Positions 56,062-60,107 of a stretch of 64,000 bases of DNA are shown here, one piece after another. The notes beneath the pieces were generated by a model that saw nothing but the letters and a program-made list of their open reading frames with translations, was not told the DNA's origin and ran no database searches. Position numbers and translations under genes: made by a program. Position 1 is the stretch's first letter; each line of letters starts with the position of its first letter. Source of the stretch: Bacteroidaceae bacterium (GTDB taxonomy: Bacteria; Bacillota; Clostridia; TANB77; CAG-508); assembly GCA_963621875.1 (NCBI GenBank), contig CAVFFR010000001.1, positions 15,940 to 79,939 on the forward strand, given 5' to 3'.

Positions 56062-56643
56062 ATGAAATACGATATAGATTCTATAAAAAAGAGAAAAGAA
56101 ATAAATAACAGAATAAAGAAAATCATATTTATATTTCTAGTAATAATGTTATACAATATAGTCTTATTGTATATGTCGTATATAGACAAATTCGATACTC
56201 CTAAATTTTATATTTATAAAGCATATATAATATCTACTGAAAGTATGCAACCAACTATTAACAAAGGAGATGTAATAATAATCAAAAAAACCAAACAAGA
56301 GGATTTAAAGGAAAATGATATTATTACATATAAAGATAAAGGAGAAATAATAACTCATAGAATAGTAGAGATTAAACCGAATGGAAATAAATATATAACC
56401 AAAGGTGACAATAATGAAGCAAGAGACGAGGAAAGCCTATCATTTGAAGATATAGAAGGCAAACTTGTGTTAAAAATTCCTCATTTAGGCAATATGGTAG
56501 CAGGACTAAAAAATGGAATAGTAATAATATTAACAATACTAATATTTTTAATAATCCATTTAAATAGAATAGGAATGAAAGAAAAAAGCGAAGCTAGGAG
56601 AATGAAAAAGAAAATTGAAGACGAGAAATTTCTTGGAAAATAA
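56062..56643 (+). CDS. Archaeal/ER-type signal peptidase I (SipW-like, S26B).
   Basis: N- and C-terminal TM segments. Catalytic Ser box STESMQPTINKGDVIII, His box ITHRIV and TKGDNN box. 193 aa. Confidence 0.75.
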   Translation: MKYDIDSIKKRKEINNRIKKIIFIFLVIMLYNIVLLYMSYIDKFDTPKFYIYKAYIISTESMQPTINKGDVIIIKKTKQEDLKENDIITYKDKGEIITHRIVEIKPNGNKYITKGDNNEARDEESLSFEDIEGKLVLKIPHLGNMVAGLKNGIVIILTILIFLIIHLNRIGMKEKSEARRMKKKIEDEKFLGK

Positions 56644-57178
56644 TCAAATAAAAAAACTGCTAAAGAAAATTTTAAAGTACGTGGGCATATTTATATTATG
56701 TTGTTTAATAGCATACAACATAATATTTATGTTCAATGAAGTATTTGCAAAAAGAAAATATGTAAAATTTTTTGGACTATATATATCAACAGAAAAAGAA
56801 AACTCCATGAGTCCAACAATAAGAAAAAACAGTCTTATTATTGGTGTAAAAACAAAAAATATAAAAAATGATGATATAATAGGATATGATATTGACGGAA
56901 GCTTAAAATACCATAGATTTATAAAAAAAAGTAACCAGAATTTATATATAACAAAAGCAGATAAAAACTATAATTATGACTTTGAAGAAAAAAGTACAGA
57001 CCAAATAAAAGCTAAAAAAGTAATAGCAATTCCTGCAATAGGATGGATATTTAAAATATTTGAAAGTAAAGTAACAACAATATTCATTATAATAGCTTTA
57101 TTATTGAAATATAGTTATAACAACTATAAAATAAAAATGAACAAAAAAAGAAAAGAGAAAAAAGATAGATTTTCATAA
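56615..57178 (+). CDS. Second SipW-like signal peptidase I paralogue. Apparent TTG start, overlapping the previous gene by 29 nt.
   Basis: N-TM, ENSMSPTIRKNSLIIGV (Ser box), KYHRFI (His box), degenerate TKADKN box and C-TM. Confidence 0.55.
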   Translation: MKTRNFLENNQIKKLLKKILKYVGIFILCCLIAYNIIFMFNEVFAKRKYVKFFGLYISTEKENSMSPTIRKNSLIIGVKTKNIKNDDIIGYDIDGSLKYHRFIKKSNQNLYITKADKNYNYDFEEKSTDQIKAKKVIAIPAIGWIFKIFESKVTTIFIIIALLLKYSYNNYKIKMNKKRKEKKDRFS

Positions 57179-57182
57179 ATAT

Positions 57183-57226
57183 AAAAAACTAGACAATTAT
57201 TAAAAAATAATTTATCTAGTTTTTTA
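57183..57226. terminator. Bidirectional terminator between the sipW pair (+) and 57227..58210 (-).
   Basis: aaaaaactag...ctagtttttt inverted repeat enclosing a palindromic AT loop. Confidence 0.45.
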
Positions 57227-58210
57227 TTAAATGGTCTCATCTTTTTTTTCGATTTTTTTCTGTCTGCTTTTCTTTACTTTAGCTGGTGGAACCTCATAAA
57301 CTATTTTGAAAAAGTGAAAGTCCTCTAATTCGTTGAACTCCAAACAAGATAAGTAAACATCAAGTTCATTTAAATTTTTACAAGCTGTTATTATTGCTGG
57401 ATGTAAATTGTAATTAGAAAACAATTCCAAAGCTAAATTACAAGCATCTTTTTTGGAACTTTTTTCTTTTTCTGTCATTAATTTATAAGCTTCTTTAAAC
57501 CTTGCAACAGAAGACACCTTATAATTTTTAATAGGTACGGTATATTTTGACAAAATAACATCAGACAAAGAACTGTATTTTTCTGGTTCTGCACGAAGAA
57601 CTTTTTTTAAATCAGAAATCTTATAAGGTAAAGTTACCAATCCAGACGTCTCTGAGATAATCAATGTGTTTTCCATTAAAGCAACAGAAGATTTTTTTCT
57701 TGTTGACTTTCTTTTTGGTTTTTCTTTCTTTACTTCAGATTCGGCATTTTCTAATTCTGCTTTTTCTAAATTATTTATAGATATATATTCTGATACATCT
57801 AAAAAAGCCATAGATTGAACAAACTTCTCAATATCACCATTGTTTTTTGAAACTTCTTCAGATACAGAAGAAAGCTTTTTATTATATTGAGTAATTTTAT
57901 TAACAGTAATATTATAATCCAAAGTAGGACAATTAAATTTTATATTATCAAGAATATCTAGCAAATTATTATAAGAAGAAATGTTATGATTTATCTTTTG
58001 CAAATAATTACTAGAATCAGCCAAAAATTTATTTATTTCATCAGAAAAAATACAATTTACTTCTATACCGCCAATAAAGCCTTTCAAAAATGTTAGAATT
58101 TGTTTACTAAAAGCATTTTGAAAGTCTATAGAAGCATTTATAGAAGTGATTTCTGTATTTATTAATTTTGTTACATTTGTCTTATTTGTCTTTGGGTTTA
58201 ATTTAATCAT
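57227..58210 (-). CDS. Hypothetical protein (327 aa) with a K-rich C-terminal tail. It is the only minus-strand gene inside the locus.
   Basis: Good-length ORF with an internal KEKPKRKSTRKK basic patch. No recognisable domain. Confidence 0.4.
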   Translation of the reverse strand: MIKLNPKTNKTNVTKLINTEITSINASIDFQNAFSKQILTFLKGFIGGIEVNCIFSDEINKFLADSSNYLQKINHNISSYNNLLDILDNIKFNCPTLDYNITVNKITQYNKKLSSVSEEVSKNNGDIEKFVQSMAFLDVSEYISINNLEKAELENAESEVKKEKPKRKSTRKKSSVALMENTLIISETSGLVTLPYKISDLKKVLRAEPEKYSSLSDVILSKYTVPIKNYKVSSVARFKEAYKLMTEKEKSSKKDACNLALELFSNYNLHPAIITACKNLNELDVYLSCLEFNELEDFHFFKIVYEVPPAKVKKSRQKKIEKKDETI

Positions 58211-58319
58211 TTGTTTCCTCCATAAATATTTATAATATTATATAACAAAAATGAGAAAAATATCAATAATAAAACAGCAAAAAACATAAAAATATAGTGA
58301 AATAAATATCGTAAAAATA

Positions 58320-58348
58320 TTGAAAAAAAAATCAAGGTATGATATATT
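58320..58348 (+). promoter_or_regulatory. Putative sigma-A promoter with an extended -10 for the second operon.
   Basis: TTGAAA, a 17-nt spacer, then tgaTATATT. Confidence 0.35.
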
Positions 58349-58406
58349 ATAAAAAAATGAAAATATTAGTTTAATATAAAAATTGAATTACTAATAGGAG
58401 GATGTA

Positions 58407-58940
58407 ATGAAAAAAATTATTGTTAATATACTTGTTGCAATATATGCTGTGATAGCAATTTTTACAACAGTATGCCTTTTGTCGTACAATGAGTATAAAA
58501 TAAGTGAATTTGGAAATAATTCATTAATTTTAGTTACAAATGACGACTTGAACCCTGATTTTAAAAAAGGAGATTTAGTAATAGTAAATTCTGCTAAGAA
58601 AAATGAAATTATAGCAGGAGACAAGGTATTCTTTTATAATTCACATGATAGAAAAGTAGATGTATCACTAGCAAAAGTAACAAAAAAGACAGTAGTAACA
58701 TCAACCGAATCTACTTTTACACTAGAAGGAGATGTAGAAATTTCGAGCCAATACGTTATAGGCTCTACAAGAGATTCTTCTGTTATACCAAAGATTGCTA
58801 ATGTACTAAGTGTTATAGAATCAAAATGGGGCTTCCTATTTTTAATAGTACTACCATCACTAATCGCGTTCTTATATGAAATTGCAGTTGTATTTATGTC
58901 GATAAAAGAAGAAAAAAAAGAAGAGAAGAAAGAGTCTTAA
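58407..58940 (+). CDS. SipW-like signal peptidase homologue with degenerate catalytic residues (probable pseudo-peptidase).
   Basis: Same N-TM/C-TM architecture and GDLVIV box. The Ser-Met of the S-M-x-P-T box is replaced (TNDDLNPDF). The His box reads SHDRKV and there is no KGDNN box. Confidence 0.5.
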   Translation: MKKIIVNILVAIYAVIAIFTTVCLLSYNEYKISEFGNNSLILVTNDDLNPDFKKGDLVIVNSAKKNEIIAGDKVFFYNSHDRKVDVSLAKVTKKTVVTSTESTFTLEGDVEISSQYVIGSTRDSSVIPKIANVLSVIESKWGFLFLIVLPSLIAFLYEIAVVFMSIKEEKKEEKKES

Positions 58941-58954
58941 ATAAGGAAATATTA

Positions 58955-59602
58955 ATGAATAAAAGAATATTCAAAAAAATCTTAATTATAGCGATATTAT
59001 TTATGGTTTTATTTATGGCATATAGAATTATTAGTATATATGCCATTTTTTATAGTGAAGGGCAAGGAAACGTTACTCAAAATAATGCAACTTGGACAAT
59101 ATATTTAAATCAAACAAATGTAACTTCTAAAAATAGTAATACATTTGAAGTTGACACTTTTGAACTAGAAGAAAATAGCCGTGTTTCAACAGGGAAAATA
59201 GCTCCAGGCACAAAGGGAAGCTTTTATATAGAACTAGATCCAAAAAATACAAATGTATCAATAAGATACGATATAGAACTAGATAAAACACAAATATCAA
59301 ATGATAGCATAGAAATAATATCTATAGAAGAAATTGAAGAAGAAAACACTTTAACAAAAACAGCTGAAAGCACTTATACTGGAATAATGCCATTACAAGA
59401 AATTCAACAAGGAAAAATAAATAAAATCAAAGTAAAAGTAGAATGGAAAAATCTAGAAGAAAATAATAGAAAAGATACATTAATAGGAACAGGAAATAAT
59501 ACAATATTGAAAATTCCAGTAAATGTTAAAGTAACACAATATTTAGGAGAAGAAATAGAAGAATATATTCCAACTTCAGGAGAAAACAATGAAACTATTT
59601 AA
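58955..59602 (+). CDS. TasA/camelysin-like (M73 fold) secreted protein with a SipW-cognate-type signal peptide.
   Basis: Signal ...FMAYRIISIYAIFYSEGQ (compare TasA ...GGGTWAAFNDIKS). Core APGTKGSFYIELDPKNTNVSIRY matches TasA KPGDKLTKDFQFENNGSLAIK. Confidence 0.5.
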   Translation: MNKRIFKKILIIAILFMVLFMAYRIISIYAIFYSEGQGNVTQNNATWTIYLNQTNVTSKNSNTFEVDTFELEENSRVSTGKIAPGTKGSFYIELDPKNTNVSIRYDIELDKTQISNDSIEIISIEEIEEENTLTKTAESTYTGIMPLQEIQQGKINKIKVKVEWKNLEENNRKDTLIGTGNNTILKIPVNVKVTQYLGEEIEEYIPTSGENNETI

Positions 59603-60107
59603 TAAAATACTAGAGATAATCCTAGACATAATAATTGTTATTATATCAATAATTGTAATTATTGCATTAGTCTATGTTGTACAAACAAAAGTAATGAAAA
59701 AAGAAAATGCAAACTTATTTGGCTTTACTGCATTTGAAGTAGCGACAGGGAGTATGTCTGGAACAATAGAAATTGGAGATGTTGTATTAGTAAAAATAAC
59801 AAATGACATCCACGAAAATGATATTATAGTATATAAACAAGAAGAACATTTTATAACACATAGAGCCTTAAAAATAGATGGAGATACAATAATAACAAAA
59901 GGTGATGCAAATAGCAGTGCAGATGTTCCGATAACAAAAAACCAGTTATTTGGAAAAGTAATAAAAATCATCCCTAATGTAGCTATATGGAAGAAAGTTT
60001 TAACAACTCCATCAGTCTTAATTACAATAATAGTAACAATTGTATTATTGGGATTTGCTGTAAACTATGATACATCAGAAAAAACAGACAAAAAGGAGAA
60101 AGTATGA
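59589..60107 (+). CDS. Third intact SipW-like signal peptidase I.
   Basis: N-TM. TGSMSGTIEIGDVVLV (Ser box), FITHRAL (His box) and TKGDAN box. C-TM. Overlaps the preceding gene. Confidence 0.7.
   Translation: MKLFNKILEIILDIIIVIISIIVIIALVYVVQTKVMKKENANLFGFTAFEVATGSMSGTIEIGDVVLVKITNDIHENDIIVYKQEEHFITHRALKIDGDTIITKGDANSSADVPITKNQLFGKVIKIIPNVAIWKKVLTTPSVLITIIVTIVLLGFAVNYDTSEKTDKKEKV

Follow-up and report, generated by a model that had tools for sequence, protein, structure and literature searches.

A conserved locus of uncultured gut Bacillota carrying several S26B-type signal peptidase paralogues, one of them a predicted pseudo-peptidase

The DNA considered here is a stretch of 64,000 nucleotides from contig CAVFFR010000001.1 (assembly GCA_963621875.1, TANB77 lineage of the Clostridia), referred to below as the window. 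Four genes lying within 4 kb of each other, P1 to P4, encode paralogous proteins of the S26B family, the archaeal and endoplasmic reticulum (ER) type of signal peptidase (Table 1). The open reading frame (ORF) list of the window places them exactly at the coordinates where an earlier note on this DNA, made from the sequence, had described four SipW-like paralogues. A fifth paralogue, P5, is found on another contig (L004:16943-17551), which by synteny puts it about 3.8 kb past the end of the window. Three of the four window proteins carry a complete Ser-His-Asp triad. The other one, P3, has none of it and is maintained as a family of its own, next to active paralogues and to genes for predicted exported proteins.

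Assignment of the four proteins to S26B rests on several lines of evidence. The model TIGR02228 (archaeal/ER-type signal peptidase I, curated cutoff of 51.85 bits) matches all of them over the full length. P1 (99.4 bits) and P4 (68.1 bits) score above the cutoff, P2 (43.1 bits) and P3 (25.1 bits) below it; P5 reaches 76.3 bits. With E-values between 1e-5 and 1e-28, matches of this kind in four genes so close together are not due to chance. The paralogue families are also homologous over their full length when the profiles of their orthologues are compared with hhalign (96-99.9%), the values being 99.9% for P2 against P1 and 96-98.7% for P3 against P1, P4 and P5. Thus, P2 and P3 are divergent derivatives of S26B, on the hhalign result for both and, for P3, on the fold match presented below. 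In the window, the families are just 20-35% identical. Since their detection across families needs profile methods, the duplications from which they arose would be ancient and would have been maintained. By hydropathy analysis, each of the five proteins has two hydrophobic segments, located at its N-terminus and at its C-terminus, in agreement with the architecture of two transmembrane (TM) segments that had been described for P1-P4.

Other identities were considered. The LepB-type model TIGR02227 yields at most 37 bits, under its cutoff of 47 and far under the TIGR02228 scores. The general-base position is occupied by His, and human SEC11A and SEC11C are the best matches in the PDB; the alignment of P1 with SEC11C/SEC11A spans the Ser, His and GDNN..D boxes. 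A LepB-type identity (S26A, Ser/Lys) is ruled out on these grounds, so that the choice of S26B over LepB made in the earlier note stands. A LexA/S24 identity of P1-P4 was ruled out as well. Finally, no paralogue reaches the SipW equivalog model NF046067 (cutoff of 190 bits), P1 scoring 85.4 bits and the others 34-65 bits. By these scores, the paralogues are SipW-like proteins and not SipW orthologues.

In SipW, the catalytic triad is Ser47/His87/Asp106 (PMC8767453). In SEC11A/C, it consists of Ser56/68, His96/108 and Asp122/134, Asp116/128 of the GD box being dispensable for activity (10.1101/2020.11.11.378711). The corresponding motifs are S61-M-Q-P-T, T-H99-R and G-D116-N-N...D122 in P1 (triad S61/H99/D122), and S64-M-S-P-T, Y-H100-R and A-D116-K-N...D122 in P2 (triad S64/H100/D122). 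P4 has S55-M-S-G-T, with Gly and not Pro, T-H91-R and G-D106-A-N...D112 (triad S55/H91/D112). The view that three of the four proteins keep the Ser and His boxes is therefore correct for P1, P2 and P4, except that the Ser box of P4 departs from the S-M-x-P-T form that had been given for all three. P1, P2 and P4 are thereby predicted to be S26B peptidases with a SipW/SEC11-type triad and to be capable of cleavage.

Comparison between species shows how firmly these residues are kept. In P4 orthologues, the S, M, T-H-R, G-D, N and D positions are invariant (81/81). All 75 orthologues of the P5 family (75/75) contain the Ser, the His and the distal Asp, with G-[ILV] in place of the GD box. P1 always follows the gene for the giant exported protein, GIANT, when the latter lies upstream in the locus, and its S-H-D-D residues are complete in the 17 loci concerned (17/17); this supports the idea that GIANT may have a peptidase of its own. 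At the P2 position, that is, in the second gene after GIANT, Ser and/or His are gone in 8 of 14 other loci, and both are retained only among close relatives of the window. This gene is even missing from several loci that have GIANT and P1. An active peptidase beside an inactive paralogue is an arrangement seen twice in the locus. It should be added that the start of P2 is uncertain: the longest ORF begins at TTG 56615, and the gene caller used on the identical contig L001 picked the equivalent of 56633.

In P3, the Ser box reads D-L-N-P-D, the His box contains no His and the GD box is absent. The same holds for the family as a whole, which counts more than 410 homologues, every one of them annotated as hypothetical. 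Its Ser column is occupied by D, E, K or G and its His column by V/I or A/G, depending on the alignment, with the GD box again absent. His is never found in the His column, be it in the best 120 homologues (120/120) or in the genomic orthologues (84/84). As to sequence conservation, the mean pairwise identity over 48 species is 51% for P3, 49% for P4 and 52.5% for P5, which shows selection to be acting on P3. Conservation and synteny rule out that P3 is a decaying pseudogene. The membrane segments of P3 are conserved above the extracytoplasmic groove. They contain the near-invariant motifs 'TVCLLSYN' and 'ESKWGFLF', the second near-invariant membrane segment being 'ESKWGFLFLIVLPSL', and the cytoplasmic tail is short and variable. 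An AlphaFold (AF2) model of the protein (predicted local distance difference test, pLDDT, of 76.8) consists of a beta domain flanked by helices 2-27 and 140-176, and its best matches in the PDB are human SEC11C and SEC11A, followed by SipA from Streptococcus pyogenes. Because the triad is absent family-wide, the family is maintained and the fold matches SEC11C/A and SipA, P3 is predicted to be a conserved pseudo-peptidase of S26B origin and not a peptidase.

Table 1. Genes of the locus within the window (positions are counted from the first nucleotide of the window)
Gene	Position	Strand	Product
U522	46114..47682	+	522 aa, soluble; invariably the neighbour of GIANT
GIANT	47706..56039	+	2777 aa, predicted exported; N-terminal signal/anchor and repeats
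P1	56062..56643	+	193 aa; S26B signal peptidase, triad intact
P2	56615..57178	+	187 aa; S26B paralogue, triad kept in this window
R327	57227..58210	-	soluble, conserved; divergently transcribed
P3	58407..58940	+	177 aa; S26B fold, without catalytic residues
S1	58955..59602	+	215 aa, predicted exported
P4	59589..60107	+	172 aa; core S26B signal peptidase
S2	60104..60676	+	190 aa, predicted exported; jelly-roll beta-sandwich
S3	60696..61610	+	304 aa, predicted exported; longest ORF from 60654
E332	61632..62630	+	soluble, conserved; near-universal synteny
M508	62646..64000 (window end cuts gene)	+	single-pass membrane protein, coiled coil, McrB-like AAA+ NTPase domain

The P4 gene shares 14 nt with S1 and 4 nt with S2. 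A scan with the P3 family, taking one genome per species, found relatives in at least 166 species genomes. All are metagenome-assembled genomes (MAGs) of uncultured gut or rumen Bacillota, among them Clostridium sp. CAG:780, CAG:567 and 'Ca. Scatovivens'. Eighty loci were then annotated with seeds taken from the window and from a near-identical contig. They display a near-invariant order, R327 (on the opposite strand), P3, S1, P4, S2, S3, E332, M508, D378, P5, S4, S5 (on the opposite strand), S6 and S7, in a locus of about 25-35 kb as a whole. P3-S1-P4-S2 forms an invariant kernel, which the compact variants share with about 80 loci at the species level. The U522-GIANT module changes place within the locus. 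In the window and in about 20 further loci, it stands upstream, together with P1 and sometimes P2; many loci have it downstream of S7 instead. In the compact variants, it directly precedes P3-S1-P4-S2-S7, and M508, D378 and P5 are lacking. No family annotation exists for most proteins of the locus, among them the S proteins, GIANT, U522, R327 and E332.

The locus also occurs in rearranged or partially duplicated form. In one case (L042:1-10000), a second D378-P5-S5-U522-P1-P5-S4-S6 block lies upstream of the core, and another (L059) has two P3-type genes. The closest assembled relative of the window is a Hadza gut MAG (CAKPGM010000002.1), whose P3 is 97% identical, and an exact-match search with the window proteins retrieved just two short contigs, both from run SRR13434692. 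No fixed chromosomal site was found for the locus. Because the upstream flanks vary between species, they are uninformative on function. In the window, the upstream DNA (36109-40130 and 43462-45935) encodes the histidine kinase and response regulator of a two-component system and a WG-repeat protein of 600 aa, followed by Spo0A and by YabG, a sporulation protease. Spo0A and YabG are coincidental neighbours, and these flanks are not kept in other species. Rfam has no match anywhere in the window, and a promoter/terminator scan stayed at chance level in this AT-rich DNA (121 sites for 120.6 expected). The best promoter-like matches, on both strands, fall in the intergenic region between R327 and P3 (58211-58406), within a scan that overall was no better than chance.

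The candidate substrates are the S proteins and GIANT. By hydropathy, S1-S5, S7 and GIANT each possess a single N-terminal hydrophobic segment, at the end of which stands a small residue followed two positions later by an aromatic one. Across 60-80 orthologues per family, these cleavage-type motifs are conserved as T-Y-A|L-F-Y-S-E in S1, T-L-S|K-Y in S2, F-G|R-Y in S3, T-Y-A|W-F in S4 and I-Y-A|K-Y in S5; the motif of S7 is Y-A-W-F. In the window, the signal peptide of S1 ends '...SIYA|IFYSE', with cleavage predicted after the invariant A30 and with S34 also invariant, that of S2 ends '...TLS|KYES' and that of S3 '...TFS|RYV'. As for the start of S3 at 60696, the L004 orthologue was called from the equivalent ATG. 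TasA has a site of comparable form, 'T-W-A|A-F-N-D', and its Phe at P2' makes the signal peptide a poor one for LepB and renders it SipW-dependent (PMC10269814).

S1, S2, S4 and S5 are mutually homologous (hhalign 90-99.7%). A model of S2 (pLDDT of 78.6) shows an N-terminal helix, then a jelly-roll beta-sandwich; fold searches with it gave generic matches in which TasA was not singled out. The S1 family comprises 908 cluster representatives, and an intermediate-sequence search from S1 through these representatives gave no bridge to a characterised family. In relatives elsewhere, the S1-like module is N-terminal in very long proteins or is fused to leucine-rich repeat (LRR) domains of the BspA type. 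Such N-terminal fusions were found in P0379 (3424 aa), P0442, P0451 and P0497. The association with adhesin-type LRR domains fits surface display.

Membership of the S proteins in the TasA family was searched for in several ways. PF12389 (TasA/CalY/camelysin) is absent from the Pfam matches of S1-S6, of 43 S1-family members and of 43 divergent relatives. Among the NCBIfam matches of S1-S6 and of 42 S4-family members there is no TasA/CalY or SipW-cognate model, and none of the SipW-exported NCBIfam families appears among the S-protein matches at E-values up to 1. The S1 and S4 profiles match no PDB sequence. When the S1-S6 families were compared by hhalign with 111 authentic TasA-family proteins, retrieved with a TasA query validated at 99% identity, the probabilities were 0.4-8.8%. 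Local alignments between the S and TasA families run motif to motif only; they join the signal motifs, 'PG..N-G' and, at the C-terminus, 'Q-[YW]-x-G'. TasA-family membership is rejected on these Pfam, NCBIfam, profile-against-PDB and hhalign results, and a motif-level likeness remains. Thus, the description of the neighbours as TasA-like in the earlier note holds for their exported type and TasA-class cleavage motif, and does not hold as family membership.

GIANT has a sole hydrophobic segment, a signal or anchor at residues 10-37, followed by 'IIAFRDS'. Its centre is built of Gly/Asn/Thr-rich repeats of 25-26 aa, and the middle third of the protein contains 19-20% Gly. In the DNA, a 75-bp tandem repeat at 52560-52759 encodes 25-residue units ('VYGGNNLGGTN...'). 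GIANT shows no Pfam match, no LPXTG sortase motif and no C-terminal anchor. Its co-occurrence with P1 suggests that it is a probable P1 substrate. U522 adjoins GIANT in every locus that has both, upstream or downstream of the core; it has no Pfam, NCBIfam or PADLOC match and no hydrophobic segment.

Among the other proteins of the locus, R327, with 43% mean pairwise identity, is encoded on the opposite strand immediately upstream of P3 in most loci. Library scans with R327 and E332 gave no family match, and family scans revealed neither a DNA-binding nor a signalling domain in R327 or P3. Of all proteins of the locus, M508 is conserved best (75% identity). Its TM segment is at 48-86, and its orthologue is complete on contig L004, where the M508/D378 region spans L004:14243-16919. 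This full-length orthologue matches PDC-M26A of PADLOC with 114 bits and the McrB family of NCBIfam weakly (E = 1.5e-4, far under the cutoff). D378 carries DUF2357, an N-terminal domain of McrC type, with 43 bits, which passes the cutoff; no nuclease domain was found in it by family scans. Together, the two proteins have the look of a motor of restriction type placed within an operon for exported proteins. Elsewhere in the window (16767-25680 and 27625-28380) lies a classical type IV pilus cluster with genes for PilB, PilC, a PilT-like ATPase, an A24 prepilin peptidase, a protein with a PilN domain and two small pilin candidates. Near this cluster there is also a gene for a sortase.

The arrangement can be compared with known systems. 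In tapA-sipW-tasA of Bacillus subtilis and sipW-tasA-calY of Bacillus cereus, as here, genes for exported beta-sandwich proteins lie beside that of a dedicated ER-type (Ser-His-Asp) peptidase, which has a TM segment at either end. There, the signal peptides of the substrates also end with a small residue and have an aromatic residue at P2'. However, those operons have one peptidase, compared with 3-5 paralogues here, of which one is fixed in an inactive state. Moreover, neither HMM nor profile-profile comparison links the S proteins to PF12389, and the paralogues fall below the SipW equivalog cutoff. The giant protein, the membrane McrB-like ATPase with its DUF2357 partner and several unannotated soluble proteins come in addition. 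The sipW-bsaA-bsaB-bsaC operon of Clostridium perfringens, also from a clostridium, is of the SipW type and encodes a number of exported proteins that resemble matrix proteins or pilins. According to the model proposed for it, the peptidase acts on membrane-tethered subunits during assembly, and export of the operon products is aided by ATPase-driven type IV pilus proteins (PMC11580942). A type IV pilus cluster is present in our window too. The C. perfringens operon differs in that sipW is present only once, a pseudo-peptidase is lacking and a vWA protein stands in the place of GIANT.

A precedent for a non-catalytic signal peptidase is SipA/LepA, encoded in the FCT islands of S. pyogenes. SipA is essential for pilus polymerisation, not for cleavage (PMC4049620). 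Like P3, it has lost catalytic residues (Ser to Asp) and its gene belongs to a surface-fibre cluster, a fibre role being suggested for P3 by analogy. However, SipA is of S26A origin (P-type, Ser/Lys) and takes part in sortase-built pili, whereas P3 is of S26B descent, carries a TM segment at its C-terminus and is accompanied by an active S26B paralogue. The likeness would therefore be one of function, and P3 is not a member of the SipA family. In the eukaryotic signal peptidase complex, SEC11A or SEC11C associates with obligatory non-catalytic partners, and the catalytic paralogues define alternative complexes (10.1101/2020.11.11.378711). The catalytic subunit shares its fold and its Ser-His-Asp triad with P1, P2 and P4. 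The partners SPC12, SPC22/23 and SPC25, unlike P3, have unrelated folds and are not dead SEC11 paralogues.

A conserved pilus cluster has been published for TANB77, a clade that owes its clinical interest to this cluster (PMC11680825). It is not the present locus, being of the Tad type (CpaB, TadZ, TadA, TadB/C). The same study would have missed this locus because it required at least 80% similarity. In the literature, we found single-sipW operons (Bacillus, C. perfringens) and the S26A protein SipA, and neither a multi-paralogue S26B locus nor an ER-type pseudo-signal-peptidase.

From homology, catalytic residues, conservation, synteny and the N-terminal architecture of the candidate substrates, the S26B paralogues P1-P4 are probably dedicated processing enzymes for the exported surface proteins of the locus, the dead copies of the P3 and P2 type acting as their partners. 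In this scheme, the pre-proteins S1-S5, S7 and GIANT would be exported by Sec. Having an aromatic residue at P2', they would be poor substrates of LepB, so that the S26B enzymes needed would come from the locus itself. The core S proteins would depend on P4 together with P5, and the co-travelling GIANT on P1. P3 and, in most species, the protein at the P2 position may be non-catalytic partners that pair with an active enzyme or hold the N-terminus of a substrate, as the SipA and SEC11 precedents suggest. By analogy with the matrix operons, the processed jelly-roll S proteins may assemble into a cell-surface fibre or matrix, of which GIANT would be a large adhesin-like component. M508 and D378 would be an accessory part of the system.

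Substrate specialisation had been foreseen in the earlier note in the form of one dedicated peptidase for each substrate. The specialisation of S26B peptidases for neighbouring exported proteins is retained in the reading adopted here; the one-to-one pairing is not. P3 is dead and, as reported above, so is the P2-position gene in most of the other loci that have it. In addition, the candidate substrates of a locus number at least 7-8 and its active enzymes 2-4, and the compact variants have only P3 and P4 for S1, S2, S7 and GIANT. Dedication at the level of modules, with paired active and inactive subunits, is a better reading of these data.

Several observations weigh against the proposed processing role. 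P3 has invariant Ser26, Ser113, Ser139, Lys140, Glu101 and Glu138 residues, with which a non-canonical active site is possible. The S proteins are not detectable members of the TasA family by hidden Markov models (HMM), profile-profile comparison or fold ranking, and their hydrophobic N-termini are possibly uncleaved signal anchors. The 'IIAFRDS' sequence of GIANT offers no unambiguous -3/-1 site. Lastly, the McrB-like/DUF2357 pair is reminiscent of restriction or defence modules and is not known to take part in secretion.

Three other explanations were weighed, and all are less well supported. According to the first, P3 and the degenerate proteins of the P2 position would be membrane proteins that serve in regulation or signalling and not as processing partners, P3 having kept only a role of the peptidase-independent kind found in SipW. 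Indeed, B. subtilis SipW has a second function, independent of its peptidase activity, in the activation of matrix genes (PMC8767453). The conservation of P3, higher in its TM segments than in the extracytoplasmic groove, and its place as first gene of the operon, beside the divergent and conserved R327, would suit such a function. However, P3 has kept the entire extracytoplasmic beta-domain, modelled with good confidence, and is never more than one gene away from the active P4. The want of any detected DNA-binding or signalling domain in R327 or P3, and a cytoplasmic tail that is short and variable, also argue against regulation, which appears rather unlikely. A membrane defence or conflict system centred on M508 and its DUF2357 partner, with the peptidase-like and exported proteins as sensors or effectors, seems more unlikely still. 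It would account for the match of M508 with a candidate defence protein of PADLOC and, weakly, with McrB, for the DUF2357 domain of D378 and for the high conservation of M508. Yet defence islands are expected to be patchy, whereas, among the species with a P3 relative (at least 166), about 80 keep one and the same gene order. D378 has no detected nuclease, and the compact variants retain P3-S1-P4-S2-S7-GIANT without M508 and D378. Furthermore, at least seven exported jelly-roll proteins and a giant repeat protein, as well as the fusion of S1-like modules to adhesin-type LRR domains, point to another kind of system.

According to the remaining explanation, the paralogues would be redundant or decaying copies of one SipW of the housekeeping type, P3 and P2 being in the process of loss. 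The patchy loss of Ser and His at the P2 position, the absence of this gene from several loci with GIANT and P1, and the HMM scores of P2 and P3 under the cutoff go in this direction. On the other hand, across the 166 species genomes P3 is intact, full length, fixed in position, endowed with invariant residues and conserved to the same degree as the active enzymes. The catalytic positions of P4 and P5 are invariant, and these genes occupy fixed and separate places in the operon. Families that are so divergent as to be linked by profiles only have also the appearance of ancient and maintained lineages. For P3, P4 and P5, decay is thus largely refuted, and as a general explanation it is very improbable.

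Starting again from dedicated processing enzymes, a bolder and doubtful model may be envisaged. The locus would encode a new Gram-positive machine for surface-fibre formation or display, common among uncultured Clostridia of the gut, in which heteromeric S26B complexes (P4/P3 and P1/P2), each made of an active subunit and a dead paralogue, process subunits with signal peptides of the TasA class, and in which a membrane AAA+ NTPase derived from McrB, recruited from restriction, powers assembly or export.

In the known bacterial cases, a single SipW accompanies one or two TasA-type matrix proteins. Here, 3-5 S26B paralogues are found per operon, and a clade of abundant uncultured gut bacteria keeps a fixed non-catalytic S26B copy, as conserved as the enzymes themselves. 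If P3 is indeed an ER-type pseudo-signal-peptidase, it becomes testable whether such proteins form heteromers, like the eukaryotic complex, or act as assembly factors that hold substrates in the manner of SipA. Heteromeric S26B complexes, if they exist, would be the bacterial equivalent of the signal peptidase complex of eukaryotes with its several subunits. These gut organisms probably owe a major surface structure to the locus, which for that reason may be relevant to their interaction with the host.

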